The notes below the pieces were generated by a model. It was not told the origin of the DNA and searched no databases. It was given only the letters and a program-made list of their open reading frames with translations. Below, piece by piece: positions 19,759-37,080 of a stretch of 64,000 bases of DNA (the first letter of the stretch is position 1; every line of letters begins with the position of its first letter). Source of the DNA: a bacterium (GTDB taxonomy: Bacteria; Patescibacteriota; Patescibacteriia; UBA9570); assembly GCA_030698395.1 (NCBI GenBank), contig JAUYKW010000008.1, positions 1,662-65,661 of the forward strand, in the 5' to 3' direction. The position numbers and the translations under genes were made by a program.

Positions 19759-20223
19759 ATGGTTCAGAAATCACTTATAATTGTAAAGCCTGATGCTTTA
19801 CAGAGAAATTTGCTTGGAGAAATTGTTAGTCGCTTCGAGCGTAAAGGATTAAAAATTGCCGGCATGAAAATGATGGCTATTGATGATGTAATGATTGAAA
19901 GTCATTACGAACATCATGTAGATAAACCTTTTTTTGAAGGATTAAAAAAATATATGCAATCATCCCCAGTTGTAGTTATGGCTGTTGAAGGCTATGAAGC
20001 AATTGATGCAATTAGATTGATTGTTGGGCCAACTAAGGGTAGGGAAGCGGATGCTGGAAGTATTCGTGGTGATTTTGCTATGAGTGTACAATATAATATT
20101 GTGCATGCATCAGACTCTGCTGAGAATGCCGAAGCTGAAGTAGCTAGATTTTTCAAAGATGATGAATTGTTCGATTATAGAAAGGTTGACTTTGATTACA
20201 TATACGGCGAAGACGAAAGATAA
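19759..20223 (+). CDS. ndk: Nucleoside diphosphate kinase.
   Basis: The NDK motifs GSIRGDFA and NIVHASDS are present. Length is 154 aa. Confidence 0.9.
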   Translation: MVQKSLIIVKPDALQRNLLGEIVSRFERKGLKIAGMKMMAIDDVMIESHYEHHVDKPFFEGLKKYMQSSPVVVMAVEGYEAIDAIRLIVGPTKGREADAGSIRGDFAMSVQYNIVHASDSAENAEAEVARFFKDDELFDYRKVDFDYIYGEDER

Positions 20224-20261
20224 TTTGACAAAAAAACAATACGAATTTATACTCTTTCTAT

Positions 20262-20342
20262 ATGATACATTTAAATAAAAATTTCTGGTTTTACTTTAGC
20301 TATATACAGCTCCGGAAGGTGTGTGCATTTGACGTGTCATAA
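20262..20342 (+). CDS. Candidate 26-aa attenuator leader peptide rich in aromatic codons: MIHLNKNFWFYFSYIQLRKVCAFDVS.
   Basis: This is a direct translation. The run FWFYFSY (3 Phe, 1 Trp, 2 Tyr) lies immediately before and overlapping segment 1 of the attenuator. No strong SD was seen. Confidence 0.45.
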   Translation: MIHLNKNFWFYFSYIQLRKVCAFDVS

Positions 20343-20396
20343 AAAAAGACATTAGATAGAAATAGCAACCTTCCGGAGCAACCGGAAGGTTTTTTT
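20309..20396 (+). promoter_or_regulatory. Transcription attenuator. Segment 1 (gctccggaagg, 20309-20319) can pair with segment 2 (ccttccggagc, 20370-20380) as an antiterminator. The alternative is an intrinsic terminator (aaccttccgg-agcaa-ccggaaggtt plus a T-run, 20367-20396). It lies upstream of the DAHP synthase/trp/aro operon.
   Basis: The 11-nt and 10-nt complementarities were read directly from the sequence. The terminator stem is followed by TTTTTTT. Confidence 0.6.
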
Positions 20397-20432
20397 ATTA
20401 AAAACCTTATCAATAAATAATTCAAGAAAAAT

Positions 20433-21449
20433 ATGATTATAGTTATGAAACAACAAACTCCAAAACAAATGGCACTAGATGTCATGGAGCGTATTAAGGA
20501 GATGGATTTAGAACCCGTACTATTAGAAGGCACAGAGCGTAATGTAATTGCAGTAATTGGTGATGAACGGATAGTGGATGAACATGTACTGAATTCTTTA
20601 GAGGGTGTAGAAAAAGTTATGCCGGTGCTAGCTCCATTTAAACTTGCTTCAAAGGAACATTCATCTGAGAAATCAGCAATTGTAATTGCACCAGGCGTTA
20701 CAGTTGGCGGAAAACGTTTAGCAATTATGGCAGGAAACTGTGCAGTAGAAACAATTGAAACATCTTTAGCAACTGCAGCTGCAGTTAAAAAAGTTGGTGC
20801 AAATATTCAGCGGGGTGGTGCATATAAGCCACGATCATCCCCATACTCTTTTCAAGGTTTAGGTGCAGAAGGATTAGAAATTTTGCAACAAGCTAAAGAA
20901 AAAAGTGGATTACCAATTGTTACAGAAGTTTTAGACACTAGACATGTGGAGCTAGTTGCAAAACATGCAGATATTTTACAAGTTGGTACTAGAAATATGC
21001 AGAATTTTGAATTACTGCGTGAAGTTGGTAATTCAAAAAAGCCGGTATTGTTGAAGCGGGGAATGGCTGCAACACTTGATGAATTCCTAATGTCTGCAGA
21101 ATATGTTTTATCTAGTGGAAATCCAAATGTAATTCTTTGCGAACGAGGTATTAGAACATACGAAACTGCAACTAGAAATACATTAGATATTTCTGCGATT
21201 CCTGTATTAAAACAAATGACGCATTTACCAGTGATAGTTGATCCTTCACATGCTGCGGGTAAGCGTGATTATGTTTCTGCGTTAGCAAGAGCGGCAATTG
21301 CTGCTGGAGCTGATGGTTTGTTATTGGATGTACATCCTAATCCTTCTCAGTCGTTAGTAGATCCGGATCAGGCATTAACATTCGAACATTTCGCTGAATT
21401 GATGGATGAAATAAAATTAATCGCTACAGCCGTTGGTAGGGAAGTATAA
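20433..21449 (+). CDS. 3-deoxy-D-arabino-heptulosonate-7-phosphate synthase (type I-beta / KDO8PS-like, with an N-terminal regulatory extension).
   Basis: A GGAYKPRSSPYSFQGLG-type motif is present. The C-terminal TIM-barrel motifs (VDPSH) are present. Confidence 0.8.
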   Translation: MIIVMKQQTPKQMALDVMERIKEMDLEPVLLEGTERNVIAVIGDERIVDEHVLNSLEGVEKVMPVLAPFKLASKEHSSEKSAIVIAPGVTVGGKRLAIMAGNCAVETIETSLATAAAVKKVGANIQRGGAYKPRSSPYSFQGLGAEGLEILQQAKEKSGLPIVTEVLDTRHVELVAKHADILQVGTRNMQNFELLREVGNSKKPVLLKRGMAATLDEFLMSAEYVLSSGNPNVILCERGIRTYETATRNTLDISAIPVLKQMTHLPVIVDPSHAAGKRDYVSALARAAIAAGADGLLLDVHPNPSQSLVDPDQALTFEHFAELMDEIKLIATAVGREV

Positions 21450-21451
21450 CT

Positions 21452-22927
21452 ATGTTTTATACCCGGGATGTAGAATCAATAAAATATGATACTGCATTAA
21501 GCTATTTTAAGCAGTTTGCTGAAGATGTACCGGGTTTTTTGCTGGAGTCTGTTGATATTGCTCCAATTTATGGACGCTTAAGCATTTTTAGCATTGATCC
21601 TCCTTTGGAAGTGGTTGGTAGTGGTGAAGATTTTTATATCAGGGCTTTAAATGATTATGGTAAAGTTTTGTTGAGTTACATTACTGAAGAGACCTTCGCT
21701 TTTTGTTCAACGTTCACTAAAACTGAATCGGAGTGTCGTGGAACAGTAAAGCGTGCTATGGAGATGTTGGATGAATCTAAGCGACAGCAACAAACAAATA
21801 TTTCATCAGTAATTCGTGCGTTATTAAAAATCTTTGCTATAGATGATCCTTATTTAGGATTATACGGTGCATTTAGTTATGATTTTGTGAGGCAATTTGA
21901 GGATATTCCAAATGTTCATGCAGAAGGTGCAATTCCTGATTTTCATTTGTTTTTACCAGATGTATTATATGTATTTGATCATCTTAAGCAGACGGCAGAA
22001 ATACGTTATTATAATTTTTCTCAAGTTAGTTTAAGTTCTAGATTAACAGGGTTACCTCGGACAAATGAATTATCGCAACCTTTCTCAGTTACAGGATTAG
22101 AATCTTCATGTCAAAGAAGTGAGTATGAAGAAAGTGTATTGAAGGCAAAAAATTATATGAAAAAAGGTGATATTTTTGAAATAGTTATATCCAGAAAATT
22201 TTCTGGTTCATGCACGGGTTCTACAATAGATTTATATACGCAATATTGTGAAATTAATCCGTCTCCTTATATGTTTTATTATCGCTTTCCGATTGCTGAA
22301 TCTAAACAGCTAAGAACTTTATTAGGTGCTTCGCCAGAAATGTTTGTACGCGTTGAAGATAACATAGTGATGACAAGACCAATATCTGGCACTGCTATTA
22401 GGAGTAATGATCCAATTGAAGATTATGAAAATATGCTAGATTTATTGAATAGTCAGAAAGAAAAAAGTGAACTTGATATGTTAATTGATTTAGCAAGGAA
22501 TGATGTATCTAGAGTTTGTGAGCCGGGCATTGCGGTAAAGGATTATCGGTATGTAGAAAAATATTCAAAAGTGATGCACACTATCGCACATGTTGAAGGA
22601 AATCTTGATGTAGAAAATTTTTCTGCTTTTGATGCTTTCATTGCTTGTTTGAATGCTGGTACTTTAACTGGCGCGCCGAAAATTCGAGCAATGGAATTAA
22701 TTGAAGAAATGGAAATCGAACGGAGAGGCTATTATGGTGGTAATGTTGGCTATATAACTTTTAACAATGAACTGAATACAGGTATAATTATCAGATCTGC
22801 AGTAATTGAGGATGGCTCTGTATCTACTCAAGTTGGTGCAACATTATTGTTGGATTCACAGCCCACGGCAGAATTCGATGAAACAACTAATAAGGCATCT
22901 GCTCTTTTATCAGTATTAACACCATAG
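21452..22927 (+). CDS. trpE: Anthranilate synthase component I.
   Basis: The chorismate-binding motifs LLGASPEMFVRV...GTLTGAPKIRAMELIEE...RGYYGGNVGY are present. Confidence 0.9.
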   Translation: MFYTRDVESIKYDTALSYFKQFAEDVPGFLLESVDIAPIYGRLSIFSIDPPLEVVGSGEDFYIRALNDYGKVLLSYITEETFAFCSTFTKTESECRGTVKRAMEMLDESKRQQQTNISSVIRALLKIFAIDDPYLGLYGAFSYDFVRQFEDIPNVHAEGAIPDFHLFLPDVLYVFDHLKQTAEIRYYNFSQVSLSSRLTGLPRTNELSQPFSVTGLESSCQRSEYEESVLKAKNYMKKGDIFEIVISRKFSGSCTGSTIDLYTQYCEINPSPYMFYYRFPIAESKQLRTLLGASPEMFVRVEDNIVMTRPISGTAIRSNDPIEDYENMLDLLNSQKEKSELDMLIDLARNDVSRVCEPGIAVKDYRYVEKYSKVMHTIAHVEGNLDVENFSAFDAFIACLNAGTLTGAPKIRAMELIEEMEIERRGYYGGNVGYITFNNELNTGIIIRSAVIEDGSVSTQVGATLLLDSQPTAEFDETTNKASALLSVLTP

Positions 22928-22930
22928 GAT

Positions 22931-23512
22931 ATGAAACAAGTAGTAGTTATCGACAATTTTGATTCATTCACTTTTAATTTAGTTGATTATCTTAAACAAT
23001 GTGATGTGAATGTGATGGTTTATAGAAACACTGTGGACTTTAATATTATTGAAGATCTGCAACCAGATTTAATTGTACTATCTCCGGGTCCTGGTAACCC
23101 ACAACAAGCTGGAAAATTAATTGATTATATAAAACATTTTTCAGAACAGGTGCCAATCTTTGGTGTGTGTTTAGGTATGCAAGCAATTACAGAAGCGTTT
23201 GGTGGAAGCTTGCGATTACTAGATCAACCGAAGCATGGTAAATCTTCTTTAATCGAGCATGATGGCAAAAGTATTTTTGCAGGCATTACAAATCCTGCAG
23301 AAGTTGGCAGATATCATTCTTTGGCTGTTGATTTAATGCCAGATGACTTTGAAATTTCTGCTAGCACAAAGGATGGGAAGGATGAAGTGGTAATGGCAAT
23401 GCGTCATAATACTTTACCAATTGAAGGGGTGCAGTTTCATCCAGAATCTGTTTTGTCTTTCAAACAGCAAGTTGGATTAAAAATGATACAGAATTTAATT
23501 GCTCAATTATGA
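22931..23512 (+). CDS. trpG: Anthranilate synthase component II (class I glutamine amidotransferase).
   Basis: The motifs GVCLGMQA...VQFHPES are present. Confidence 0.9.
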   Translation: MKQVVVIDNFDSFTFNLVDYLKQCDVNVMVYRNTVDFNIIEDLQPDLIVLSPGPGNPQQAGKLIDYIKHFSEQVPIFGVCLGMQAITEAFGGSLRLLDQPKHGKSSLIEHDGKSIFAGITNPAEVGRYHSLAVDLMPDDFEISASTKDGKDEVVMAMRHNTLPIEGVQFHPESVLSFKQQVGLKMIQNLIAQL

Positions 23513-24486
23513 AGCAGTATCTTCAAATCATTGAGGATGGTGATACACTTTCTGAAGATCAAGCGGAGCAGGCTTTAAATTTAATCATGACAGGAAATGC
23601 AGATGAATCTGAAGTAGCTGCGTTACTTTCTGGTATGGCTAAACGAGGCGAGAGTGAATCTGAAATAATTGGTATGTTACGTGGTATGAGATCACAAATG
23701 GTGAAGATTGATTTAGGAAATGATTTGCTTGATACTTGTGGTACGGGTGGTGATGGTTTGAGTACTTTTAATATTTCTACAACCGTTGCATTAATTTGTG
23801 CGGCGTTGGGAGTTAAAGTGGCAAAGCATGGTAATAGAGCGGCTAGTTCTAAGAGTGGAAGTGCGGATGTGCTGGAAGCTTTAGGTGTGCCAATTGAATT
23901 ATCTGGTGGTGATGCAAAAGAATATTTTAATGAACATAATTTTGTCTTCCTTTTTGCTCGTACCTATCATCCTGCAATGAAACACGTTGCATCTGTAAGA
24001 AAAGAATTGGGCATTAGGACGATATTTAATTTCTTAGGACCCTTGGCTAATCCAGCCGGTGTAACAAGACAAATTGTAGGTGTTTCAAATCCAGAAAAAG
24101 CAAAGAGTATTGGCAATGCATTAATGGCTTTGGGAGCAGAACATGTATTAGTAATTTTTAGTGAAGACGGCATGGATGAGGCTAGCATTGCTACGCCAAC
24201 TAGCGTGCTAGATTTTAAACTAGGTCATATGGAAGAATTTACAGTGCAACCGCGTCAAATATTTTCTTTAGCCGACATAGCTGGTGGAGAGCCTGAAGAA
24301 AATGCACAGTTAATTAAAAACTTAGCAATCGGTAATGTGCATGCAGCTGTAAAAGAAGCAGTAATCCTTAATGCTGGCTTAGCATTGTATACTGCTGATG
24401 ACGTTTCTTCATATCAACAGGGGATAGAAAAAGTTGAAGAGTTTTTAAACAGTGGGGAGTTTGATAATTATCTGCAAAAGTTATGA
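23509..24486 (+). CDS. trpD: Anthranilate phosphoribosyltransferase.
   Basis: The motifs DTCGTGGDG...KHGNRA are present. Confidence 0.9.
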   Translation: MKQYLQIIEDGDTLSEDQAEQALNLIMTGNADESEVAALLSGMAKRGESESEIIGMLRGMRSQMVKIDLGNDLLDTCGTGGDGLSTFNISTTVALICAALGVKVAKHGNRAASSKSGSADVLEALGVPIELSGGDAKEYFNEHNFVFLFARTYHPAMKHVASVRKELGIRTIFNFLGPLANPAGVTRQIVGVSNPEKAKSIGNALMALGAEHVLVIFSEDGMDEASIATPTSVLDFKLGHMEEFTVQPRQIFSLADIAGGEPEENAQLIKNLAIGNVHAAVKEAVILNAGLALYTADDVSSYQQGIEKVEEFLNSGEFDNYLQKL

Positions 24487-25907
24487 TTACTCTGGAAGAT
24501 ATTTTAATAAAAAAACGTCAACGTTTAGAAGCAACGAAAAAGCAACAACCCTTAGTAGAATTAAAAAAAGCGCTAGCAGTTGTAGCGGATTCAAAACATA
24601 GTTTAGTTGATGCACTTACAGGTAAGGACAAAGTAAACGTTATTGCTGAATACAAAACTGCTTCGCCAAGTGGAGGGGTATTGATTGAGCAACCGAATTT
24701 AGAGAAAATTATTGCCAGCTATATATCTGGTGGTGCAACAGCTATATCAGTTTTAACAGAGCAAGACTTTTTTCTTGGAAATCTTTCTAGATTATCGTAT
24801 GTAAAATCTATGGTTGATGTACCAGTGTTGCGCAAGGATTTTATTATCGATCCGTATCAAATATATGAAAGTAAGGTACAACAAGCTGATGCAATATTAC
24901 TGATTGCTAATATACTGTCCGCTGAGCAGTTGCTAGAGTTTTCTCAGTTAGCAAAAGAATTAAAGTTGGATGTTTTATTTGAGATTCATGATGAACAAGA
25001 TCTTGAAAAAGTATTAGCATGCAAGCCACGTTTAATTGGCGTGAATGCACGTGATTTATCAACTATGGAAGTTGATTTGAGGAGGATAAATAAATTAATA
25101 AAAAAGATTCCTGATAATATTACGATAGTTGCTGAATCTGGAATTACTACTAAGCAAGATATCGATCACTTAAAAGATTTAGGAGTCAGTGCTGCGTTAA
25201 TTGGAACAACATTAATAAAATCTGATGATCCTCAAGGTAAGTTGCACGAACTGTTAGGCATTGATGACAATAAACAGTTTGTTGCTAAACAACAGTGTAA
25301 AGTAAAGGTGTGTGGAATAACTAATGAGGCTGATGCTTTTTTAGCTGTTCAATGTGGAGCTAATTATCTTGGATATATTTTAAATTATCCAAATAGTTCA
25401 AGATTTATTTCTATTAGTGATGCGAGTAAAATAATAAAAAGTGTTAGCTTGTTATATCCAGATATTAAGCATGTAGGCGTATTTGTAGATGCGACGGTAG
25501 ATACTATAACTAGAATGCAAAAACAATTGGATCTTGATGTAGTGCAGTTGCATGGCGATGAATCCATAGAGGAGGTTAGGGCAATAGGTAATGTAGAGAA
25601 ATGGAAGGCAGTTGAGATTCATCATACATCAGATGTTTCTTTAATCGAAAAATACATTGATGATGTGGATGCGATTGTAGTTGATGCTGGTAAAGGGTCT
25701 GGTAAGAGGATCGATCATGATATTTTACAGCAGATTAAATTTTCTAAACAGTTAGTGCTAGCTGGCGGTTTGGCGCCGGACAATGTTAGAATGTTAGTAG
25801 CAGATTATAGGCCAGCTATAGTTGATGTAAGTTCTGGAGTAGAAGCGATGCCCGGAAAAAAGGATCGTGCAAAGTTAGAAGCTTTTTTTGAGGCTGTGTT
25901 AATATAA
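24483..25907 (+). CDS. trpC: Bifunctional indole-3-glycerol-phosphate synthase / phosphoribosylanthranilate isomerase (TrpC-TrpF fusion).
   Basis: The N-terminal half has IGPS motifs (IAEYKTASPSGG, GVNARDL). The C-terminal half has the PRAI motif (KVCGITNEADA). Total length is 474 aa. Confidence 0.85.
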   Translation: MITLEDILIKKRQRLEATKKQQPLVELKKALAVVADSKHSLVDALTGKDKVNVIAEYKTASPSGGVLIEQPNLEKIIASYISGGATAISVLTEQDFFLGNLSRLSYVKSMVDVPVLRKDFIIDPYQIYESKVQQADAILLIANILSAEQLLEFSQLAKELKLDVLFEIHDEQDLEKVLACKPRLIGVNARDLSTMEVDLRRINKLIKKIPDNITIVAESGITTKQDIDHLKDLGVSAALIGTTLIKSDDPQGKLHELLGIDDNKQFVAKQQCKVKVCGITNEADAFLAVQCGANYLGYILNYPNSSRFISISDASKIIKSVSLLYPDIKHVGVFVDATVDTITRMQKQLDLDVVQLHGDESIEEVRAIGNVEKWKAVEIHHTSDVSLIEKYIDDVDAIVVDAGKGSGKRIDHDILQQIKFSKQLVLAGGLAPDNVRMLVADYRPAIVDVSSGVEAMPGKKDRAKLEAFFEAVLI

Positions 25908-25916
25908 ATTATCAAT

Positions 25917-27152
25917 ATGAGCAAAGAACTTTTTTTTAAAACTCAATATGAGCCAGATGAGAATGGCCATTTTGGGGAGTTTGGTGGACGATATGTGCCG
26001 GAATTATTAATGCCGGTTTTGATTGAATTAGAACAAGCTTATAAAAAAGCTATTCAAGATGAAAGTTTTTTAGCAGATATAAAAAAAGTTTTTAAGAATT
26101 TTGTGGGTCGTCCTACGCCATTACATTATGCAAATAATCTTTCGGATGAGTTAGGCGGTGCTAGAATCTATTTAAAAAATGAAGGTCAGGCGCATACGGG
26201 AGCACATAAGATTAATCATTGCGTCGGACAAGCATTACTTGCAAAACGCATGGGAAAGAAACGAATCATTGCAGAAACTGGTGCTGGTCAGCATGGCATA
26301 GCTGCAGCTACGGTAGCTGCCAAGTTTGGTTTTTCATGCACGGTTCATATGGGAGCAGTTGATGCTAAACGGCAAGCACCAAACGTTTTTTGGATGCAAC
26401 AGTTAGGTGCAGAGGTGAAGATTGTAGAGCATGGAACTAAAACATTGAAGGATGCAGTAACTAGCGCATTACAAGATTGGATTGGAGATCCAGCAGAGAG
26501 TTACTATTTATTAGGATCCGCGTTAGGTCCACATCCTTATCCAATGATGGTGCGAGATTTTCAGAGTATCATCGGTATAGAAGTATCAGAACAAATTCAG
26601 GAATACATTGGAGAAAATAAAAAGCCAGATTATTTAGTAGCCTGCGTGGGTGGAGGTAGTAATGCAATTGGATTATTCAATGCATTTTTGGATGATCCTG
26701 AGGTACACATGATTGGTGTAGAGGCTGGCGGTAGAGATGTCACTAAACCTGGTGAGCATGCAACTAGATTGGCTAATAATTCTAAAGTAGGAGTGATTGA
26801 TGGGTATAAATCTTACTTTTTACAAGATGATCAAGGTAATGTGGAATCAACCCATAGTATTTCTGCTGGATTAGATTATGCAGGCATTGGTCCGGAGCAT
26901 GCTTATTTACATAGTGTAGGCAGAGTAGAATATACGTCGGTCTCAGATGAAGAAGCTAGAGCAGCTTTTACAAAACTCAGTCGTAGTGAAGGAATTATTC
27001 CAGCTTTGGAATCCGCACATGCTGTGGCGCATGCGCTTAAACTTGCACCAGAGTTATCATCTGATAAGAATATTGTGGTGAACATTTCTGGAAGAGGGGA
27101 TAAAGATTTATTTATTGTTAACGAAAAATTGAATGCCAAGATCAATAACTGA
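25917..27152 (+). CDS. trpB: Tryptophan synthase beta chain.
   Basis: The PLP motifs HTGAHKINH and GGGSNAIG are present. Confidence 0.95.
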   Translation: MSKELFFKTQYEPDENGHFGEFGGRYVPELLMPVLIELEQAYKKAIQDESFLADIKKVFKNFVGRPTPLHYANNLSDELGGARIYLKNEGQAHTGAHKINHCVGQALLAKRMGKKRIIAETGAGQHGIAAATVAAKFGFSCTVHMGAVDAKRQAPNVFWMQQLGAEVKIVEHGTKTLKDAVTSALQDWIGDPAESYYLLGSALGPHPYPMMVRDFQSIIGIEVSEQIQEYIGENKKPDYLVACVGGGSNAIGLFNAFLDDPEVHMIGVEAGGRDVTKPGEHATRLANNSKVGVIDGYKSYFLQDDQGNVESTHSISAGLDYAGIGPEHAYLHSVGRVEYTSVSDEEARAAFTKLSRSEGIIPALESAHAVAHALKLAPELSSDKNIVVNISGRGDKDLFIVNEKLNAKINN

Positions 27153-27906
27153 ACAAATTAAGTTAGCCAAGCAGGAAAATCGCATGGCACTTATGACTCA
27201 TGTAGTAATGGGTTATCCAAGCTTAGAAGATACTAGGCAGAGAGTTTTATTGATGGTACAAGCTGGCGTTGATATTATTGAGTTACAACTTCCGTTTTCT
27301 GATCCTTTAGCGGACGGACCAATTATTACCGTGGCGAATCAGACTGCTGTGAAAAATGGGGTTACAATTAAGCAATGTATGGATCTTGCTACAGAATTAT
27401 CCAGCCAAGTTGAAATACCTTTGCAATGGGTTGGTTATTATAATACAGTTTTTAATTATGGCATCGAGAAATTTATTAAGGATAGTAGGAGGGCAGGAAT
27501 TCAGGCATTTACTTTTCCAGACTTACCAATTGATGAAGAACCATATGAACATTTTTTTGAATTAGCTAGTCTGGCTGGTATTCCAGTGATTCAGTTAGTG
27601 TCACTAATAACACCAGTGGAGAGACTTAAAGAAATTAACAAATTAGCTCATTCATATATTTATTGCGTGGCTCGTTTTGGTGTGACGGGTACTGATTCTA
27701 AGATGTCAGATGAGATTGTTTCATATCTGCAGAAGGTACGAAAATATGTTACAGTACCTTTAGCAGTTGGTTTTGGCATTTCGCAACCACAGCATATTCG
27801 GGATTTGCGTGATAGTGCTGATGTGGTAGTTGTAGGAAGTGCTCTACTAAATTTATCTTTACCAGAGTTAAAAGACCAAATTCAAACATTATGCGCAGCT
27901 TTGTAA
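27133..27906 (+). CDS. trpA: Tryptophan synthase alpha chain.
   Basis: The size is right, it overlaps trpB, and it has a typical TrpA core (ELQLPFSDPLADGP). Confidence 0.85.
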   Translation: MPRSITEQIKLAKQENRMALMTHVVMGYPSLEDTRQRVLLMVQAGVDIIELQLPFSDPLADGPIITVANQTAVKNGVTIKQCMDLATELSSQVEIPLQWVGYYNTVFNYGIEKFIKDSRRAGIQAFTFPDLPIDEEPYEHFFELASLAGIPVIQLVSLITPVERLKEINKLAHSYIYCVARFGVTGTDSKMSDEIVSYLQKVRKYVTVPLAVGFGISQPQHIRDLRDSADVVVVGSALLNLSLPELKDQIQTLCAAL

Positions 27907-28910
27907 AAACTTTATCAAAAAAATATCCAGTTATTATTGAGCAAGGTATTGTGAAGAAATTTAAGTTTCCAAAAAATGCATTTGTTATCAGTGATGATAG
28001 TTTGCGGATAAAATTTAAAAATGAATTACCAAATCATCAATGGATTAGTTTTTCTGCTGGTGAACATTCTAAAAATTTAACTACAGTTGAAGAACTGTGT
28101 GAAAAATTAGTAAAGTTGGGAGCAAATCGTAGTTCTAGTATTATTGCGTTTGGTGGCGGTATAGTTGGTGATATTGCAGGATTTGTAGCATCTATATATA
28201 TGAGAGGGATTCCGTTTTATCAAGTTCCAACATCTTTGCTAGCAATGGTGGATGCGAGTGTTGGTGGTAAAACAGGTGTAGATTTAAATGCCGGAAAAAA
28301 TTTAATTGGATCTTTTTATCAGCCCGAAGCTGTACTGATTGATCCGACATTTTTAGTTAAGCTTCCGCAACTAGAGTTTAGTCATGGTATGGCAGAAGTT
28401 ATTAAACATGGAGTTATTGATGGTAAGTTTTTTAATTGGCTAGAAAATAATCAGGATAAGATAAAACAGCGTGATGTAGAAACTTTGTCTACGATGATTG
28501 CAAAAAATGTGAAAATTAAATCTGATATTGTCGAGCAGGACGAGAAAGAGGGCAATGTAAGGATGTTGCTAAATCTGGGACACACCTTTGGTCATGCAAT
28601 TGAAAAATTAAGTGAATATGCAATACCACATGGTGAAGCAGTTGCGATGGGAATGATTTACGCTGCTGAATTTTCTGAATCGAAAGATGTATTAAGAATA
28701 ACTAAGTTATTATATGAATTTGGTTTATCAAGCCATTTAGAAAAACCATATACTGCAAAATCTATGGTTGGCGTGATGATGTCTGATAAAAAAAATAAAG
28801 ATAATAAGATTAATTTAGTTTTACCTCAATCGATTGGTGATGTAAAAATCAATTCTGCATTTAGTTCAGAAAAATTAGAGAAGTTTATCTCGAACTATTA
28901 TGAGCGCTAA
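27891..28910 (+). CDS. aroB: 3-dehydroquinate synthase.
   Basis: A glycine-rich NAD motif (GGGIVGDIAGFVA) and metal-binding His residues are present. Confidence 0.9.
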   Translation: MRSFVKTLSKKYPVIIEQGIVKKFKFPKNAFVISDDSLRIKFKNELPNHQWISFSAGEHSKNLTTVEELCEKLVKLGANRSSSIIAFGGGIVGDIAGFVASIYMRGIPFYQVPTSLLAMVDASVGGKTGVDLNAGKNLIGSFYQPEAVLIDPTFLVKLPQLEFSHGMAEVIKHGVIDGKFFNWLENNQDKIKQRDVETLSTMIAKNVKIKSDIVEQDEKEGNVRMLLNLGHTFGHAIEKLSEYAIPHGEAVAMGMIYAAEFSESKDVLRITKLLYEFGLSSHLEKPYTAKSMVGVMMSDKKNKDNKINLVLPQSIGDVKINSAFSSEKLEKFISNYYER

Positions 28911-30621
28911 AAAGATTGCTGTATTAGCAAAACCGATTAAATATTCAATTTCGGTTCCTGGTTCTAAATCTCTAATGAACCGAGCATTAATTTGTGCAGC
29001 TCTTGCTAGTGGACAGACAAAACTTACGAATCCAAATTATTGCGAGGATACAGTTTATCTTATTAAGGCATTGCAATCTCTTGGCGTAACTATCAAGCAA
29101 CATGCTGATTATTTATTAGTTAAAGGAATTGCTGGCAAGTTCAAAAAACCAAGTCGAGCATTATTTTTAGGCAATGCAGGAACAGCGACTAGATTTTTAA
29201 CTCCACTAGTTCCAGTGGGAACAAGCATAACTGGTGACAAACATATGCAGCAAAGACCACTAGATGATTTGTTAAAAGCATTGTATCAGTTAGGATTTGA
29301 TTTTGAATCGAAAACTGGATGTCCACCAGTAAAAATTATATCTCGCGAACAAACATCAGAAACAATAGATATTCCAGGAAAGATAAGTAGTCAATATTTA
29401 TCGGCCATATTAATGATGGCACCAACTTTAAAGAAGCCATTAACTATTAATGTACGCGGAACATTGGTATCGAAGCCATATGTAGAAATGACTATTGCGG
29501 TAATGAAGCAATTTGGTGTGAGCATTAGGCATGAAGATTTTAAGAAATTTTTTATTAAGCCCCAAGTTTATCAATTTACAAAATATGAAGTGCCAGCAGA
29601 TGCAAGTAGTGCAACTTACTGGTGGACACTTGCAGCGATTACAGGTAGCTCAATTACAGTGGATAATTTACATGATAATAAGCAAGCAGATTTTGGTTAT
29701 TTGCAGATTTTAAAAAAGATGGGTTGCCAGGTTAAAGGAACTACAGTTACTGGCTCGGAAGAATTGTGGGCAGTTTCTCAAAATATGAAAGATATGCCGG
29801 ATGCAGTTATGAGTTTAGCAATGGTCGCAGCATGCGCAACAGGTGTAACTGAGATAAAAAATATTTCTCACTTAAAAGCTAAAGAAACTAATAGGCTAAA
29901 GTTGTTAATTTCTAATTTACGAAAAGTTGGAATTAGAGCAAGTACTAATGGCACGAATTTAAAAATCACAGGGGATGTTGGTAAAATAAATGGGAAGCGG
30001 ATAACAACAGAAGATGATCATCGGTTTGCAATGGCTTTTGCTATTCTAGGTTTGCGTTTTTCTAATATGTCGATTGATAAATCGGAATGTGTAAAAAAAA
30101 GCTATCCAGCTTTTTGGCAAGATATTCAGAAATGCCAGCAAGCCAGTAAGAAACAAACCATCTTGTTAACTGGCATGAGGGGTTCTGGTAAAAGTACAAT
30201 TGGAAAAAATTGGGCAAAAAAGTATGGTGCAAGTTTTATAGATCTTGATGAAGAGATTGAAAAAGAAATTAGCATGAGTATTTCGCAATATGTTAAAAAC
30301 TATGGTTGGAAAAAGTTCAGAAATGTTGAAATTAAAATTACGAAACGGTTCATAGATATTGAAAATGCTGTTATAGCGACAGGGGGCGGTACATTGATGA
30401 ATCAGCATAATTATGTTAATCTTAAACACTACTATATAGTTTTAATGTATGCGCCAGTCTCAGAATTAAGACGCAGGGTGCAGAATGACAAGAAAACAAG
30501 TAAGTCTCGCCCAGCATTATTATCTGATACACAAGATGAATTAGGTGATATTTGGAAAAAACGCAAATATAAATATTATCAGGTAGCTGATAAAATATAT
30601 GATAGCCGTAACCCTCGCTAA
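28900..30621 (+). CDS. aroA: Bifunctional EPSP synthase / shikimate kinase (AroA-AroK fusion).
   Basis: The N-terminal ~420 aa have EPSPS motifs (LFLGNAGTATRFL). The C-terminal ~150 aa carry a P-loop (LTGMRGSGKSTIGK) typical of shikimate kinase. Confidence 0.85.
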   Translation: MSAKKIAVLAKPIKYSISVPGSKSLMNRALICAALASGQTKLTNPNYCEDTVYLIKALQSLGVTIKQHADYLLVKGIAGKFKKPSRALFLGNAGTATRFLTPLVPVGTSITGDKHMQQRPLDDLLKALYQLGFDFESKTGCPPVKIISREQTSETIDIPGKISSQYLSAILMMAPTLKKPLTINVRGTLVSKPYVEMTIAVMKQFGVSIRHEDFKKFFIKPQVYQFTKYEVPADASSATYWWTLAAITGSSITVDNLHDNKQADFGYLQILKKMGCQVKGTTVTGSEELWAVSQNMKDMPDAVMSLAMVAACATGVTEIKNISHLKAKETNRLKLLISNLRKVGIRASTNGTNLKITGDVGKINGKRITTEDDHRFAMAFAILGLRFSNMSIDKSECVKKSYPAFWQDIQKCQQASKKQTILLTGMRGSGKSTIGKNWAKKYGASFIDLDEEIEKEISMSISQYVKNYGWKKFRNVEIKITKRFIDIENAVIATGGGTLMNQHNYVNLKHYYIVLMYAPVSELRRRVQNDKKTSKSRPALLSDTQDELGDIWKKRKYKYYQVADKIYDSRNPR

Positions 30622-31939
30622 TCCAAGACACCTCAAGCGTGCTAATAGCACTAAGGCGGATCTTATTGAAATCCGAACTGATTTATATCCTGAATCAAAC
30701 ATAGCCGGTTTAATTGCAAAATGTGAGAAACCGGTTATTTTAACTATCAAATCTCCACGCACTGTTTGGCTGGATTATATTGATTCACCAAAAGTTAAAT
30801 ATGTTGATATTGATTATCGCTTAACTGGTTTGATTAAGGAATTTCATAAAGAGAGATCAAAACGTGTAAAGCTAATTGTATCTTTTCATGATTACAAGGA
30901 AACTCCATCTTGGGAAAGAATTCAAAAACGATTAGTACAATTACAAAAGTTAAATCCAGATGTTATCAAAGTCGCTACTATGATAGAGGAGTTTGATGAT
31001 ATTAGTGTGATTGCGCGATTACAAAAGAAACTAGGTAAGAAAGTGATTGCAGTTGGCATGGGAGATTTAGGTATGATGACCAGAATATATAACAGGGGAT
31101 TACTAACATACGCGCGGTTAAGTGCAACAGATAAGCAAACGTTGGAAAATGTTAGTGCAGCACCAGGACAACTTACCGTAGAACAATTAAAGGAGAGAAA
31201 GATTTTTGGGCTAGTCGGTGATGCTATTAAATATAGCTTAAGTCCTTTGATGTATAATAACTCTTTTCAGCATTATGATTTGCCACATATTTATCAGTTG
31301 TGGGATACGTCAAAGTTTTCTACATTTAAAGAGGTATTCAATTTTTTTAAGCTTCCTGGAGCATCAGTAACACAGCCTTTTAAAACTAACGCATTAAAGA
31401 TGGTTGACCACGCAGATGCAGATTCGGTAAAAATTGGTGCAGTAAATACAGTGGTCCGAGATTCTGATGATAAGTTGATTGGATATAATACAGATTGGGT
31501 AGGTGCAGAAAAAGCTTTGCATGGAGAATTAAAAGATAAAAAAATATTAATTCTTGGGGCTGGCGGTGCGTCAGCAGCTGTGGCATATGCAGCTGAAAAA
31601 AATGGTGCAACTAAGGTAACAGTATTATCTCGGAGGGATATGCCAACTGATGAAGATGATTTTGATGTTTTAGTTAATGCAACACCGGTTTACGATACAG
31701 TTTTAGTTCCAGAAGATTCTTTGTATAGTAAAGTTGTAATGGATTGTAATTATGGAACAATTACAGAGTTAGTACGTCATGCTGAGAAAAAAGCGCGAGT
31801 TGTCATGGATGGCTTGCCCATGTTATTGTATCAGGGTGAACCGCAATTTAAATATTGGACTGGAAAAAAAATGCCAGTAGAGAAAATTATGACAGCATTA
31901 AAAAAACATAAGAAAGCAAAAACTGGGTATGGCAGGTAA
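30599..31939 (+). CDS. Bifunctional 3-dehydroquinate dehydratase (type I) / shikimate dehydrogenase (AroD-AroE fusion).
   Basis: The N-terminus is DHQase-I-like. The C-terminus has the NADP Rossmann motif ILGAGGASAAVAYAA. Confidence 0.75.
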   Translation: MIAVTLANPRHLKRANSTKADLIEIRTDLYPESNIAGLIAKCEKPVILTIKSPRTVWLDYIDSPKVKYVDIDYRLTGLIKEFHKERSKRVKLIVSFHDYKETPSWERIQKRLVQLQKLNPDVIKVATMIEEFDDISVIARLQKKLGKKVIAVGMGDLGMMTRIYNRGLLTYARLSATDKQTLENVSAAPGQLTVEQLKERKIFGLVGDAIKYSLSPLMYNNSFQHYDLPHIYQLWDTSKFSTFKEVFNFFKLPGASVTQPFKTNALKMVDHADADSVKIGAVNTVVRDSDDKLIGYNTDWVGAEKALHGELKDKKILILGAGGASAAVAYAAEKNGATKVTVLSRRDMPTDEDDFDVLVNATPVYDTVLVPEDSLYSKVVMDCNYGTITELVRHAEKKARVVMDGLPMLLYQGEPQFKYWTGKKMPVEKIMTALKKHKKAKTGYGR

Positions 31940-32906
31940 TACATTTGGACAATTATTTCGAGTAACAACATGGGGAGAATCTCATGGTCATGCTATTGGT
32001 GGTGTAATTGATGGATGTCCAGCTGGAATCTCACTATCCATAGATGATATTCAGGTAGATTTGGATAGGCGCAGGCCAGGGCAAAGTATTATTACAACAC
32101 CGCGCAAAGAACTTGATAAGATAAAAATTTTATCTGGAGTTTTTGAAGGAAAAACTACTGGTACGCCAATTAGTTTAGCGATTAAGAATCAGGATCAGCG
32201 ATCTCAGGATTATGCCAAATTAAAAACGAGTTATCGAAAAGGACACGCAGATGAGGTGTATGATTTGAAGTATGGTTTTCGTGATCATCGTGGAGGTGGT
32301 AGAGCAAGTGCACGTGAGACTGCTGTGCGAGTAGCTGCAGGTGCAGTGGCAAAAAAAATATTACCGAAGAAAACCAAAGTAATTGCTTATACTAAACAGA
32401 TTCAAGATTTGGTAGTAGCAATACCAAAGTTTAATCAGATAGAGCAGAATCCAGTTAGAGCAGCAGATAATAAAGTAGCAGCTGAGATGGTGACATTAAT
32501 AAAGCAGGCTATGAGAGCTAAAGATTCCGTGGGTGGAATTATTGAGATAGTAATTAAAAATTGTCCGGTTGGTCTGGGTGAGCCTGTGTTTGATAAATTA
32601 AAAGCAGATTTAGCGAAAGGCTTATTAAGTATTCCAGCAGTTGTTGGATTTGAGTATGGTGCGGGTTTTGATGTAGTTGCAATGTATGGTTCAGAGCATA
32701 ATGATATTGAAGTTGGTATGTATGGTGGAATTTCTGATGGTAAAGACATAACAATGAGGGTAGCAGTTAAGCCTACTTCTTCAATAAAAATAAATGGTCG
32801 TCACGATCCATGTTTACTGCCTCGAGCAGTTCCAGTTTGTGAGGCAATGGTTAATTTAGTATTGATAGATTTTTATTTACGTAATAAGATTGTTCGTTCT
32901 AAATAA
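31929..32906 (+). CDS. aroC: Chorismate synthase.
   Basis: The motifs GESHG...RPGQS are present. Confidence 0.95.
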   Translation: MAGNTFGQLFRVTTWGESHGHAIGGVIDGCPAGISLSIDDIQVDLDRRRPGQSIITTPRKELDKIKILSGVFEGKTTGTPISLAIKNQDQRSQDYAKLKTSYRKGHADEVYDLKYGFRDHRGGGRASARETAVRVAAGAVAKKILPKKTKVIAYTKQIQDLVVAIPKFNQIEQNPVRAADNKVAAEMVTLIKQAMRAKDSVGGIIEIVIKNCPVGLGEPVFDKLKADLAKGLLSIPAVVGFEYGAGFDVVAMYGSEHNDIEVGMYGGISDGKDITMRVAVKPTSSIKINGRHDPCLLPRAVPVCEAMVNLVLIDFYLRNKIVRSK

Positions 32907-32931
32907 CTATTTTTAATGAACTTATATTTAT

Positions 32932-34266
32932 ATGGCAGATCCATTTAAGCCAGGGAGTGTAGCAAGAAAAATAGATTCTGATGTTCCACCAGCTGAAGAA
33001 GATGACTTAGGTATTTCTGTTGAGCATGCTGCTGTTTTAGATCGAGCAGCTCGTTATGGTGATCTTGAGAATGATGTTGAAGAGGGCTTGAGTGAAGCAG
33101 AGAAAAAAAATAAGGTGGCAGAGCTGGCAACTACTTTTGCTAGTGAGGATCATAGATTTGATAGAGAATTGATGAATGCGATAGATATAAAGCTTGGTGC
33201 TAAACATATGGCCATGGAGCAAAGTCTATCTGGTTTCGTTGAATATATAAATGAACCTGATTTGGAATCTTGTAATAAATTATTGGAGATTTTTGGTGAA
33301 ACTAGAATGGAATTTGAGGAACGATTTGGATATTTAGAGATGTTCAAGAGTAGAATGCAACGATCAGAGTTTCCAGAAGTTCGAGCGATGGCGTTAATAA
33401 TTGAAAAATCATACGCAGCGATGCTGCAGTACGCAGATTTATTATCGGCAGCTGAGAATTTAATGGGTAAGATAAAGAACCAGGTCGAGATGACTGGATT
33501 ACCAGAAGATATTGCATTACAGCAATTAAAAAAATTGAGTAATAAAATAGCTACATTGTATCGAAATGAGCTCCACAAAGTCGGTAGAAATGTTCGTCAC
33601 GCGTTAGCGTACGAAGGATATCGTGCATATATTGATAGTACTGATGATAAAGAAAATTTAAGAGAAGGCGATGTTGATGAGGATTATCTTTATGAATCTG
33701 GGATAAAGTTGGATGATGTGAAATTAAATGAAGGAGATATAAAAACACTCCAAGCATTGGATTTTAGAATGAAAGGTAGAGTTGGAGCTATTACGACTGA
33801 GTTGTTTAATTCCACCAGCGAAGAGAGATTAGAAAAAAATAGACAATCACTAGAAACGATACAGAAAGTTAAAATGTACTTTCAGGATCGTATGCAAATT
33901 ATATCTGATATATTACCAACACTAAACGAGGCTGATTCTATCTTTTTGCAAGAATTGCACATGCCAATGAGAGAGTTCATTATAGAAATGGAAAATCTAT
34001 TTAGCGTTTTGGATCGAGCTATTGTTGAATTGAATAAGTTAGTAGAAAGTAATTTATCAATTGAAGATAGATCTCTAATACAAATTAAATTGGATGAAAT
34101 GCAGAATGAAGTTGAGAGAATTTATCAACAAAAACTACAACCATTTGCAAATGTGGTCGCTACAAATTTAGCTTATATGAAGTACCGTAAAGGCGTGACT
34201 GAAACTCAAAGAGACGAGACGCCTGAATTGGTAGGTGAAGATTATCAATTAAATGTTGCTAAGTAA
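32932..34266 (+). CDS. Hypothetical acidic, probably helical protein (444 aa) embedded in the aromatic operon.
   Basis: The ORF is intact in the host low-GC composition. No motifs were recognised. Confidence 0.4.
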   Translation: MADPFKPGSVARKIDSDVPPAEEDDLGISVEHAAVLDRAARYGDLENDVEEGLSEAEKKNKVAELATTFASEDHRFDRELMNAIDIKLGAKHMAMEQSLSGFVEYINEPDLESCNKLLEIFGETRMEFEERFGYLEMFKSRMQRSEFPEVRAMALIIEKSYAAMLQYADLLSAAENLMGKIKNQVEMTGLPEDIALQQLKKLSNKIATLYRNELHKVGRNVRHALAYEGYRAYIDSTDDKENLREGDVDEDYLYESGIKLDDVKLNEGDIKTLQALDFRMKGRVGAITTELFNSTSEERLEKNRQSLETIQKVKMYFQDRMQIISDILPTLNEADSIFLQELHMPMREFIIEMENLFSVLDRAIVELNKLVESNLSIEDRSLIQIKLDEMQNEVERIYQQKLQPFANVVATNLAYMKYRKGVTETQRDETPELVGEDYQLNVAK

Positions 34267-34272
34267 ATTATA

Positions 34273-34893
34273 ATGATGAAAATAGCAGTATCCGGAGAAA
34301 AGGGTAGTTTTTCACATCAAGCAGCGCAGCTTTATGCTACAGCTCACAGTTTAAGTGATATTGATATTATCTTTTGTGGTGATAGCGCTGGTGCATTTAG
34401 TGCTTTATCTAATAAAGAAGCAGATAAAATTATTATTCCAATATATAATTCAACAGGAGGTTTTGTGAACATGACGTTGCAAGCTATGGGAGAGTTTTTG
34501 TTTCAGATTGAAGAAATGTTCGAAATGAATGTATTGCAATGTTTGCTGATAGATAAAAATATTAATGCTGATCAGATTGAGCAGATTGCATCTCATCCTC
34601 AGGCATTGAAACAATGCAAAGATTATTTACAAGAGAATTGGTCCGGTAGAGAGTTATTAGAATATCAAGATACAGCCAAGGCAGCCAAAGATTTAGCAAG
34701 CGGTAAATTAGATAACACCACAGCTGTGATAGCACCTGAATTAGCTGCAGAAATTTATGGGCTCAAGGTACTGGAAGAATCAATTCAAGATTTGAAATTT
34801 AATGCTACAACTTTTTTAGTAGTAGCTTCACCAGGTGGTGAAAAACAATCTGAAGAGATTAAACAGGAAAAATTAAAGGAGGAACTAGAATAG
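34273..34893 (+). CDS. pheA: Prephenate dehydratase-like (PDT domain only, no ACT domain).
   Basis: The N-terminus IAVSGEKGSFSHQAA resembles the PDT start (GxxGSFS/TE.A). It is in aromatic-pathway context. Confidence 0.65.
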   Translation: MMKIAVSGEKGSFSHQAAQLYATAHSLSDIDIIFCGDSAGAFSALSNKEADKIIIPIYNSTGGFVNMTLQAMGEFLFQIEEMFEMNVLQCLLIDKNINADQIEQIASHPQALKQCKDYLQENWSGRELLEYQDTAKAAKDLASGKLDNTTAVIAPELAAEIYGLKVLEESIQDLKFNATTFLVVASPGGEKQSEEIKQEKLKEELE

Positions 34894-34894
34894 T

Positions 34895-35584
34895 ATGAAC
34901 ATAGGAATTATAGGTGCTGGTAGATTTGGTAAGTTGCTCGCTGAACAATTGGAAAATGATAATAAAATTTTTCTTTTTGATAAGTTAGATGATAAAGATG
35001 AATTAGAGTCTTGTAATTTAGTTATTTATGCAGTACCAAATAGTTTATTGCAAGACGTAATAAATGAAACAAAAGAATTTATTCAATCAGATGCGATTGT
35101 AATGGATGTTGGTTCGGTTAAAATAAAACCATGTGCTGTGTTACAGGAAGCATTTGGAGAAAATATTTTAGGTACGCATCCGCTGTTTGGCCCAGATAGT
35201 GCTAGTGATTCTTGGGAGGGACATAAGATGGTTTTTTGCAAATTGAATATTCCTGATGATCAGTATAATAAAGTAAAAGAATTATTTATTAGCAGGGGAG
35301 TTAAAGCAATTGAATGTTCACCAGAGGAACATGATAAAATGATGGCTAAAACTCAAGCTTTAGTACACTACATTGGACGAGCACTTTCTGGAATTAAAGA
35401 GCAAGAAATATCTACGCCAGATTATGCAAATTTATTACGCATGATGGAGAAAGTTACTCATGATACTTGGGAATTATTTTATGACATGCAAAATTTGAAT
35501 CCGTATGCTAAATTAGAAAGAGAAAAGTTCAGTAAAAATATTGCTGAGTTAGAAGAAAAAATTAACCAAGAGTTAGATAAATAA
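34895..35584 (+). CDS. tyrA: Prephenate/arogenate dehydrogenase.
   Basis: The NAD(P) motif is IGIIGAGRFG. It is in aromatic-pathway context. Confidence 0.7.
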   Translation: MNIGIIGAGRFGKLLAEQLENDNKIFLFDKLDDKDELESCNLVIYAVPNSLLQDVINETKEFIQSDAIVMDVGSVKIKPCAVLQEAFGENILGTHPLFGPDSASDSWEGHKMVFCKLNIPDDQYNKVKELFISRGVKAIECSPEEHDKMMAKTQALVHYIGRALSGIKEQEISTPDYANLLRMMEKVTHDTWELFYDMQNLNPYAKLEREKFSKNIAELEEKINQELDK

Positions 35585-35587
35585 AGT

Positions 35588-35854
35588 ATGATCGAAAAAT
35601 CTTTAGAAGAATTAAGAGAGCAGATTGATAATATTGATGAAAAGATAATAAAATCAATTGGTGAAAGGTTTTTGGTTGTTGAGAAAATTGGAAAACTAAA
35701 GCAGGCGACTGGAATTCCAGTGCAAGATCCACACCGAGAAGCAAAATTATTATTGAAATTAAATACTTTAGCTCAGAAATATAACGTGTCCATTGAGGTA
35801 GTTACTCATATATATGACTATTTAATGCATCATTCCAGAGATAGCCAGCAGTAG
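35588..35854 (+). CDS. AroQ-class chorismate mutase.
   Basis: It is an 88-aa helical protein, with LEELREQIDNID...IGKLK typical of AroQ chorismate mutase. Confidence 0.8.
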   Translation: MIEKSLEELREQIDNIDEKIIKSIGERFLVVEKIGKLKQATGIPVQDPHREAKLLLKLNTLAQKYNVSIEVVTHIYDYLMHHSRDSQQ

Positions 35855-35871: not shown

Positions 35872-35900
35872 TTGACACTTTATAAAGTATAAATTATAAT
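35872..35900 (+). promoter_or_regulatory. Perfect consensus sigma70 promoter: TTGACA, 17 nt, TATAAT.
   Basis: The sequence is ttgaca-ctttataaagtataaat-tataat. Confidence 0.55.
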
Positions 35901-35906
35901 GTTCTT

Positions 35907-36095
35907 AAGTTTATGAATTTTATACACAGCAACAACTTATCTAAGCTTAAATGGACAGTGGTCTCTTCTATTAAGACACTGGTACGTATTTATTTACATA
36001 TAGCGCGGGCAAGGATAAGCAATGCAATTACATAAGTTGCATAATAAACAGAAAAGCTGCAACCTTAGCCCGCGAAAAAAACGCGGGATTTTTAT
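35907..36095 (+). ncRNA. Candidate ~190-nt small RNA or leader transcript, running from the consensus promoter to an intrinsic terminator. It contains a long imperfect stem (36003-36014 with 36063-36074) that competes with the terminator stem, and an optional 30-codon sORF.
   Basis: The promoter and terminator were read from the sequence, with no gene in between. It could not be matched to SRP RNA, 6S RNA, tmRNA or RNase P consensus motifs. Confidence 0.3.
36068..36095 (+). terminator. Intrinsic terminator: stem cccgcg / cgcggg, a 7-A loop, and a T-run.
   Basis: The sequence is gcccgcg-aaaaaaa-cgcggg-atttttat. Confidence 0.55.
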
Positions 36096-36230
36096 ATATT
36101 ATTTCTAGACTACTCGACTGGTATCCTCCGCACTAGTTGAGTCGCCTGGAAAGTAATTTCCAGATTATCGTTCTTTGTAAAGTATTTATCCCTATTTTTA
36201 GAAGTTATTCTGTTAATGGTGATAAAACAA

Positions 36231-36251: not shown

Positions 36252-36275
36252 AAATCTGGTTTAAAACGTAGCAGA

Positions 36276-37064: not shown

Positions 37065-37080
37065 AAGAGCGAATAGAGGG

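Follow-up and report, generated by a model that had tools for sequence, protein, structure and literature searches.

A probable leader-peptide attenuator with mixed aromatic control codons ahead of an aromatic amino acid operon in Patescibacteria

We describe a short intergenic element in a 64,000-nucleotide stretch of patescibacterial DNA (contig JAUYKW010000008.1 of assembly GCA_030698395.1, positions 1,662 to 65,661 of the forward strand; hereafter the window) that is very likely, as judged from its sequence, a ribosome-mediated, leader-peptide transcription attenuator of the aromatic amino acid operon behind it. Expression of that operon would very probably be made dependent on the supply of charged tRNA-Phe, tRNA-Trp and tRNA-Tyr. 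The stretch under study is the 209-nt intergenic region that runs from ndk (19759-20223) to the DAHP synthase gene (20433-21449). It holds a near-consensus promoter, a short open reading frame (ORF) with a run of aromatic codons, and three RNA segments from which either an antiterminator or a terminator helix can form; these features recur in a clade of relatives, and both helices covary.

Architecture and conservation of the leader

The leader region of the window is made up of the following parts:

20225..20253, + strand: promoter, with -35 box TTGACA (20225-20230), 17-nt spacer and -10 box TATACT (20248-20253), from a promoter scan
20262..20342, + strand: leader ORF of 26 codons, MIHLNKNFWFYFSYIQLRKVCAFDVS followed by a stop codon, from translation
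20283..20303, + strand: control codons F8, W9, F10, Y11, F12, S13 and Y14 (FWFYFSY), 26 to 8 nt upstream of segment 1
20309..20320, + strand: segment 1, GCTCCGGAAGGT, 5' strand of the antiterminator, within leader codons Q16-V20, from pairing and conservation
20367..20379, + strand: segment 2, AACCTTCCGGAGC, the shared strand, in which 20368-20379 pair with segment 1 and 20367-20376 with segment 3
20382..20396, + strand: segment 3, CCGGAAGGTT (20382-20391), with a T-run (20390-20396), forming an intrinsic terminator with segment 2, from a terminator scan

The promoter, absent from the original prediction that drew attention to this region, has 11/12 consensus matches and is the top candidate of the promoter scan within 3 kb; its -10 box lies 8 nt from the leader ATG. 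The ORF reads as that prediction had claimed, with 26 codons and the FWFYFSY run, but it does not end inside segment 1 as had been stated: the frame crosses the segment, which encodes L17-R18-K19-V20, and stops 20 nt downstream (20340-20342), in the loop between segments 1 and 2. The perfect complementarity claimed for segments 1 and 2 is present over 11 nt (GCTCCGGAAGG, 20309-20319, with CCTTCCGGAGC, 20369-20379) and grows to a 12-bp helix through T20320/A20368, segment 1 then complementing ACCTTCCGGAGC (20368-20379). The terminator scan also returned the proposed 10-bp stem of segments 2 and 3 (AACCTTCCGG, 20367-20376, with CCGGAAGGTT, 20382-20391), which has 6 G-C pairs and a 5-nt loop; the T7 run expected behind it consists of seven T after GG, two of them inside the stem. 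For the 209-nt intergenic RNA, the folding energy is -43.8 kcal/mol (z = -4.0 relative to dinucleotide shuffles, 0/200 of which are equally stable), and perfect inverted repeats of at least 11 nt with a spacer of 20-80 nt occur at only four loci in the 64 kb. Aromatic runs, on the other hand, are common in this AT-rich window: six-frame translation gives seven stretches in which at least 6/7 residues are Phe, Trp or Tyr, where shuffles give about two. Since the aromatic run alone is not rare, the evidential weight falls on conservation in relatives, and the case from the window by itself is suggestive rather than compelling.

The DAHP synthase of the window has about 50 close homologues at 72-80% identity and a second tier at 59-66%. 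The closest are named in their sources as Patescibacteria group or Candidatus Kerfeldbacteria, consistent with the earlier suggestion of a genome like that of CPR (candidate phyla radiation) bacteria. Contig retrieval and one metagenome scan yielded 14 further distinct upstream regions, which together with the window form a family of 15; in this clade, DAHP synthase is 63-80% identical to that of the window. Finding the same leader in relatives was a check set beforehand, and all 14 of the distinct, hairpin-bearing relatives keep the aromatic leader ORF, with both helices conserved. The promoter is present in 15/15 members as TTGAC(A/T/G), a 16-17 nt spacer and a TAnAnT box, and in 15/15 the ATG follows 7-11 nt past the -10 box. 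The leader ORFs are 19-30 codons long, contain 6-8 aromatic residues and keep their position and frame relative to segment 1 in all members; examples from the relatives begin MTTQHNYFDFYWFTKLRKV, MNNSHSFNWYWFYKPLRQV and MKNIIKTNGYFWFWNYKQLRKE, and one reads MNNLHRYYFWFSYTSLRKV up to its stop codon. Pooled over the family, 101 of 372 leader residues (27%) are Phe, Trp or Tyr. Every member has a CTCCGGAAGG-like segment within the ORF, a complement of it 35-60 nt downstream and a terminator that reuses this complement. The order of Phe, Trp and Tyr is permuted between members and synonymous codons are mixed (TTT 36, TTC 14, TAT 19, TAC 12), which indicates selection on the encoded amino acids and not on the nucleotides.

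Both helices are further supported by covariation in the 15-sequence alignment (antiterminator, columns 64-74 with 137-147; terminator, columns 136-145 with 153-162). The antiterminator helix is paired in 93.7% of cells, 5/11 of its pairs have changed on both sides, and its covariation score was reached in 0/500 shuffles; sliding the partner strand by one column reduces pairing to 53-60%. In the terminator helix, 88.7% of cells are paired and 4/10 pairs show compensatory change. RNAalifold, run unguided, returns the antiterminator as the consensus structure. Covariation is three-way at alignment columns 69/142/156 and 68/143/155: one position reads, across the three strands, G/C/G (ten sequences), A/U/G (two), A/U/A (one) or U/G/C (one), and the neighbouring position in locus L103 is A/U/A. 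Such joint change of three strands is expected when one strand has two alternative partners. Folding of the segments, which the original prediction had recommended, gave a concordant picture, with the stability of the full 209-nt RNA given above and a transcript cut just before segment 3 that folds as the antiterminator in 15/15 members. The spacer between segments 1 and 2 is conserved neither in sequence nor in length, which leaves no room for a ligand pocket and argues against a ligand-binding core.

The genes behind the leaders provide a test of what the codons may sense. We searched with the operon proteins of the window by tblastn and viewed 2-2.5 kb downstream of the DAHP synthase gene. 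In ten members trpE follows directly, and in one (L099) trpB does; Trp codons are present in 11/11 of these leaders. Where aroB comes directly after DAHP synthase instead (L088/L096 and L102, which belong to different sub-clades), the leaders, MRSQPNTYYFFYFTRYYRKLC and MQNQLNKFYFFFTYTQLRKA, lack a Trp codon. With phylogeny ignored, the probability of so perfect a split is 1 in 78. We regard the tracking of trp genes by Trp codons as a clean natural experiment in favour of codon sensing.

L099 is also of note for its own composition. Its operon runs DAHP synthase-trpB-aroB, with a lone trpB and no trpE next to the DAHP synthase gene, and its leader (1757-1911), MNNKDLKFNQRNQGFFWFFTMLWKNQVRSL, contains Phe and Trp codons and no Tyr codon.

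Translation start, geometry and proposed mechanism

Between the -10 box and the leader ATG there is no room for a Shine-Dalgarno site, and the 5' untranslated region would be only about 0-3 nt long if transcription starts where promoter spacing predicts. The family leader is probably translated as a leaderless mRNA. The original prediction had asked for a check of the start signal; the lack of a Shine-Dalgarno site is clear and the constant closeness of ATG and -10 box fits a leaderless message, for which the transcription start is deduced from the promoter. Such a start also suits the genome, in which Shine-Dalgarno motifs are nearly absent (a loose match in the 20 nt before the start in only 7/67 window genes) and other start codons lie close to a -10 box (TATAnT 6-9 nt before the start of several operon-first genes, e.g. 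2304, 12169, 17576, 44621 and 50637). These counts suggest that leaderless or Shine-Dalgarno-independent initiation may be the norm in the organism of the window.

The spacing of codons and segments is likewise constrained. In 15/15 members, 5-29 nt separate the codons of the main aromatic run from segment 1 downstream, and the first Phe, Trp or Tyr codon is always at least 10 nt (10-29 nt) before it. L088 has two additional Tyr codons only 2-5 nt before segment 1, and L099 an isolated Phe codon 41 nt upstream. All 15 ORFs cross the core of segment 1 and stop 13-36 nt ahead of segment 2; relative to the end of the extended helix, their stops range from 8 nt before to 26 nt after. Translating ribosomes open mRNA to about 9-13 nt past the first base of the A-site codon. 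Given this reach, a ribosome stalled at the first hungry aromatic codon should leave segment 1 free; in the window, where the first Phe, Trp and Tyr codons stand 26, 23 and 17 nt before segment 1, a stall at any of them should do so.

The observed parts, together with their conservation, covariation and geometry, suggest the following course of events, in which transcription start, stalling and termination are predicted steps. Transcription would begin some 0-3 nt ahead of the leader ATG; the 5'-terminal AUG would then be loaded with a ribosome. When all three aromatic aminoacyl-tRNAs are plentiful, the ribosome would pass the Phe, Trp and Tyr codons and segment 1 and reach the stop codon before segment 2; sitting on segment 1 or in the loop just after it while segments 2 and 3 emerge, it would block pairing of segments 1 and 2. 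Segment 2 would then pair with segment 3, and the hairpin and U-run would end transcription ahead of the DAHP synthase gene. When any one aromatic aminoacyl-tRNA is scarce, the first hungry codon would hold the ribosome at 10-29 nt upstream of segment 1, and the free segment 1 could capture segment 2 as it emerges, so that no terminator forms and RNA polymerase enters the operon. By analogy, this design may be seen as the logic of the Escherichia coli trp attenuator minus its first, pause or protector, segment. A conserved pairing of the aromatic-codon region with segment 1, as in a pause or protector hairpin, was not found among the members, whose upstream hairpins differ from one another. 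We set aside one candidate 'segment 0' (UUCUGG of the Phe-Trp codons with CCGGAA of segment 1/3), hinted at by the minimum-free-energy fold of the window, as it occurs in 7 sequences only and depends on codon choice.

Several points weigh against this interpretation. The correlation of Trp codons with trp genes rests on two loss events only, seen within 2-2.5 kb past the DAHP synthase gene. One close relative by DAHP synthase (L104), which has a different gene context, lacks the leader, and five relatives have only a short U-run (TTTA or TTTG) behind the stem. The last aromatic codons, such as Y14 at 8 nt in the window, stand so near to segment 1 that a ribosome stalled on them would cover part of the segment. 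With no pause hairpin of the E. coli 1:2 type, a leader left untranslated would be expected to default to read-through. Finally, the terminator scan found nothing in the window from the ndk stop (20223) to the leader promoter; transcripts reading through from ndk would hold the leader AUG internally, with no Shine-Dalgarno site, and would probably bypass control.

Alternative explanations

One alternative is that the hairpin does no more than terminate the upstream ndk transcription unit and that the short ORF is an accident. In the window the hairpin is indeed the sole terminator-like site downstream of ndk, and it probably stops ndk transcripts as a side effect. The relatives speak against a role confined to ndk: ndk and the element are set apart by a PIN toxin-antitoxin pair in L082 and a GDPD gene in L083, and also in L098 and L099; about 0.9 kb separates the ndk stop from the leader promoter in L081; the upstream neighbour in L088/L096 is a glycosyltransferase; and in L081 and L097 a hairpin of its own follows ndk immediately. 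In every case the element comes with its own promoter, ahead of DAHP synthase, and it stays before that gene despite other genes after ndk, which indicates that it belongs to DAHP synthase and not to ndk. As a plain terminator would also need no conserved, covarying competitor strand upstream, we find this explanation scarcely credible. A functional small peptide, hydrophobic or aromatic, as the product of an ORF that has its own terminator and senses nothing is likewise exceedingly unlikely. The ORF is kept across the clade and its L-R-K-V stretch is nearly invariant, as a functional peptide might be, but LRKV is encoded by segment 1, so that pairing explains its conservation, and where Q or W stands in place of R, segment 2 has changed to compensate. 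Elsewhere the peptide varies from 19 to 30 aa in length, with an unconserved tail past LRKV and a shuffled order of aromatic residues, and a peptide function would not explain why a competing helix overlaps the terminator.

A pair of terminator and antiterminator taken alone would suit any antitermination mechanism, including a switch that senses a ligand, a protein or a tRNA (a riboswitch or a T-box-like or TRAP-like element) and to which the ORF is incidental. The window even has three UAG triplets between the leader stop and segment 2 (20353-20365), but these are unconserved in the relatives, and the TRAP-like reading was rejected. Rfam matches with E up to 10 included no riboswitch or T-box family, the loop joining segments 1 and 2 is unconserved as noted above, and what is conserved is instead the ATG, the frame through segment 1 and the aromatic residues, with Trp codons following trp genes; a switch of this kind is accordingly very unlikely. 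Translation of the leader could also act by some other route, such as Rho-dependent polarity, mRNA stability or translational coupling to DAHP synthase, with the hairpins secondary. The weak U-runs of some relatives and the variable distance from the terminator to the DAHP synthase ATG (about 25 to about 180 nt across members) would fit such control. However, covariation of both helices argues for selection on each of them, the DAHP synthase start codon lies outside any conserved pairing, and most members have a canonical stem followed by T5-7. We consider these other routes highly improbable, and leader-peptide attenuation of transcription remains our preferred reading.

The operon and other features downstream

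The operon behind the leader, with one ORF in it that stands out, was delimited by Pfam and ORF coordinates:

20433..35854, + strand: regulated operon of 15 ORFs, about 15.4 kb, with gaps of at most 25 nt
32932-34266: acidic ORF of 444 aa between aroC and pheA, without a Pfam domain

The gene order is DAHP synthase-trpE-trpG-trpD-trpCF-trpB-trpA-aroB-aroA/aroK-aroD/aroE-aroC-ORF444-pheA-tyrA-chorismate mutase. Pfam assigns a ferredoxin-like (FXD) domain to DAHP synthase, recognises TrpC-TrpF, AroA-AroK and AroD-AroE as fusions, and places a prephenate dehydratase (pheA), a prephenate dehydrogenase (tyrA) and an 88-aa type II chorismate mutase at the end of the operon. The pathway genes named in the original prediction were thus confirmed, whereas its count of 16 genes was not: there are 15 ORFs. 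For one of these, the 444-aa ORF, a search of 5.8 billion proteins returned no homologue other than itself, and an orphan gene seems to have entered the core biosynthetic operon here and to be co-regulated with it.

CPR bacteria, or Patescibacteria, are usually seen as auxotrophic symbionts with few recognised regulatory RNAs. Our findings imply that this clade, in which a single operon of 15 ORFs behind a starvation sensor covers the whole pathway to chorismate, Trp, Phe and Tyr, makes its own aromatic amino acids and tunes their synthesis to the levels of charged tRNA. They also imply that transcription-translation coupling works on a leaderless message in an organism that has practically no Shine-Dalgarno sites.

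A second element with an attenuator-like layout and a GC-rich island lie just behind the operon:

35873-36095: second element, directly after the chorismate mutase gene
35913: ATG of the second element, 12 nt on from its promoter, TTGACA-17-TATAAT
~36003: GCGCGGGCAAGG, crossed by the 40-codon ORF of the second element, with the complement CCTTAGCCCGCG at ~36064 and, as the alternative, a terminator CCCGCG-A7-CGCGGG-ATTTTT
36100-39200: GC-rich island of three or four modules (GC 0.41-0.48 against a background of 0.35)
36238/37140 and 37290/37690: island modules closed by the long-range stem AGAGGCAACGTGAAA ... TTTCACGTTGCCCACCTCT
~37822/38215: variant of that stem with compensating changes, GGCAATATGAA ... 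TTCATATTGCC

The 40-codon ORF of the second element contains no obvious run of a single amino acid, and its fold reaches z = -2.2 only. In the island, every module has a closing long-range stem, module flanks are repeated (D1, D3), and module 2 folds on the + strand with z = -4.5. Two of the small GC-rich ORFs of the island are weakly paralogous. The small ORFs had no Pfam match and the island no Rfam match, and a 213-aa ORF matched only itself among 5.8 billion proteins. When viral contigs were scanned for the module-flanking repeat, one pattern gave 0 matches and a 16-mer gave 6, a number judged to be in the range of chance, with no expectation computed.

Comparison with known systems

The original prediction had called the element a textbook attenuator of the trp and pheA type. 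The leader-peptide stalling attenuator stands, on the evidence of covariation and conservation, but the design departs from the textbook in several respects. Like E. coli trpL and pheL, the element places ahead of its operon a short ORF in which end-product amino acids are abundant, and terminator and antiterminator share a strand, with ribosome position selecting the helix. Unlike those leaders, which have four segments and a 1:2 pause or protector hairpin, the element of the window has three and no pause hairpin; the stalled ribosome would stand upstream of the 5' strand of the antiterminator and would not mask a segment, and the ORF crosses that strand fully. It also lacks a Shine-Dalgarno site, is probably leaderless and appears to respond to three amino acids where they respond to one. 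The top Rfam match in the window is Phe_leader (RF01859), whose 28.6 bits (E = 0.017) fall short of the gathering score of 55; Trp_leader (RF00513) gave no match in the window at E up to 10, and no family reached its gathering score in the window or in 16 loci. We set aside sub-threshold matches to PyrR, rimP and snoRNA families as chance.

Aromatic leaders are not confined to the clade. We scanned contigs by universal DAHP synthase motifs, and the matches listed comprise distant homologues of at most 58% identity and no clade members. ORFs rich in Phe, Trp and Tyr lie upstream of DAHP synthase at 14/88 of these non-clade loci, against 3/104 reverse-complement controls, in Geobacter/Geomonas, Syntrophia, Desulfurellales, Methylomirabilis, Verrucomicrobia, Gemmatimonadota and Clostridia:

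L012, L013, L017, L019, L036, L059, L070, L072, L080, L091/93/94: non-clade ORFs rich in Phe, Trp and Tyr, 200-300 nt upstream of DAHP synthase

Examples of their aromatic runs are FSFYFWFGFYF and NYWFSYFYF, and no Rfam family matched these leaders. Among 11 non-clade leaders that were folded, all have a hairpin and U-run downstream except that of Methylomirabilis (L072), whose fold is not clean. Geobacter/Geomonas and Syntrophia share the three-segment layout, from aromatic run through an ORF crossing segment 1, stop codon and segment 2 to terminator, in unrelated sequence. An nhmmer profile of the family, run against 105 sequences, matched clade members only and found a single copy in the window, which suggests that the leaders of other phyla are analogous or too diverged to align. 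A further case was seen in Gracilibacteria (L001, OY760177.1, 3816-3990), where an upstream ORF ending ...SFNFYFF before its stop, two hairpins and a T8 run precede DAHP synthase; Gracilibacteria use an altered genetic code, and the boundaries of this ORF are hence uncertain. It is possible, if somewhat short of probable, that the element of the window is the CPR representative of a large uncatalogued class of attenuators rich in Phe, Trp and Tyr codons before FXD-domain (type I-beta) DAHP synthase genes, with the clade leader acting as a leaderless three-input OR gate whose codons evolve with the genes of the operon. Should such a class exist, the leader could show, from sequence alone, which aromatic amino acids a bacterium with a reduced genome still produces for itself.

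Published leaders provide partial parallels. In Corynebacterium glutamicum, the aroR leader before aroF, a DAHP synthase gene, encodes Phe-Tyr-Phe and works by attenuation, according to PMC11802643 (citing Neshat et al. 2014) and PMC4046766, and the latter cites Morbach et al. (2000) for the finding that synthesis of leader peptides in this species can do without a ribosome-binding site. The aroR leader resembles our family in placing a mixed aromatic leader peptide ahead of a DAHP synthase gene; the family differs in its 6-8 aromatic codons, which include Trp, in a pathway of 15 ORFs as opposed to a small aroF operon, and in its unrelated lineage. The candidate uORFC-13-1, found upstream of aroF in Acholeplasma and environmental sequences, has been proposed as an attenuator (Brewer et al. 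2021, PMC8632094) and likewise has, before a DAHP synthase gene, a promoter and an intrinsic terminator together with an upstream ORF that contains Phe codons. Going by its description, it has a ribosome-binding site, an extra stem and a Phe-coding U-run, whereas the element of the window has no ribosome-binding site and codes for Phe, Trp and Tyr. In Deinococcus deserti, leader peptides begin at a 5'-end AUG and attenuation is predicted, in one case before trpEGD (de Groot et al. 2014, PMC4007540). These leaders share with ours the leaderless leader peptide and the prediction of attenuation; they belong to another phylum, respond each to a single amino acid, and have a measured transcription start where that of the window is deduced.

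Our literature search found no description that pairs leader-peptide attenuation with Patescibacteria; papers naming both 'candidate phyla radiation' and 'leader peptide' deal, by title and abstract, with other topics. The mechanism itself is a textbook one and offers no new principle; the present case is of value for its lineage and for the comparative data set. DAHP synthase genes preceded by similar attenuators have been described before, and control codons for more than one aromatic amino acid also occur outside the clade. What is distinctive about the clade leader is its host lineage, its three-amino-acid input, its minimal three-segment, leaderless design and the size of the operon it regulates.

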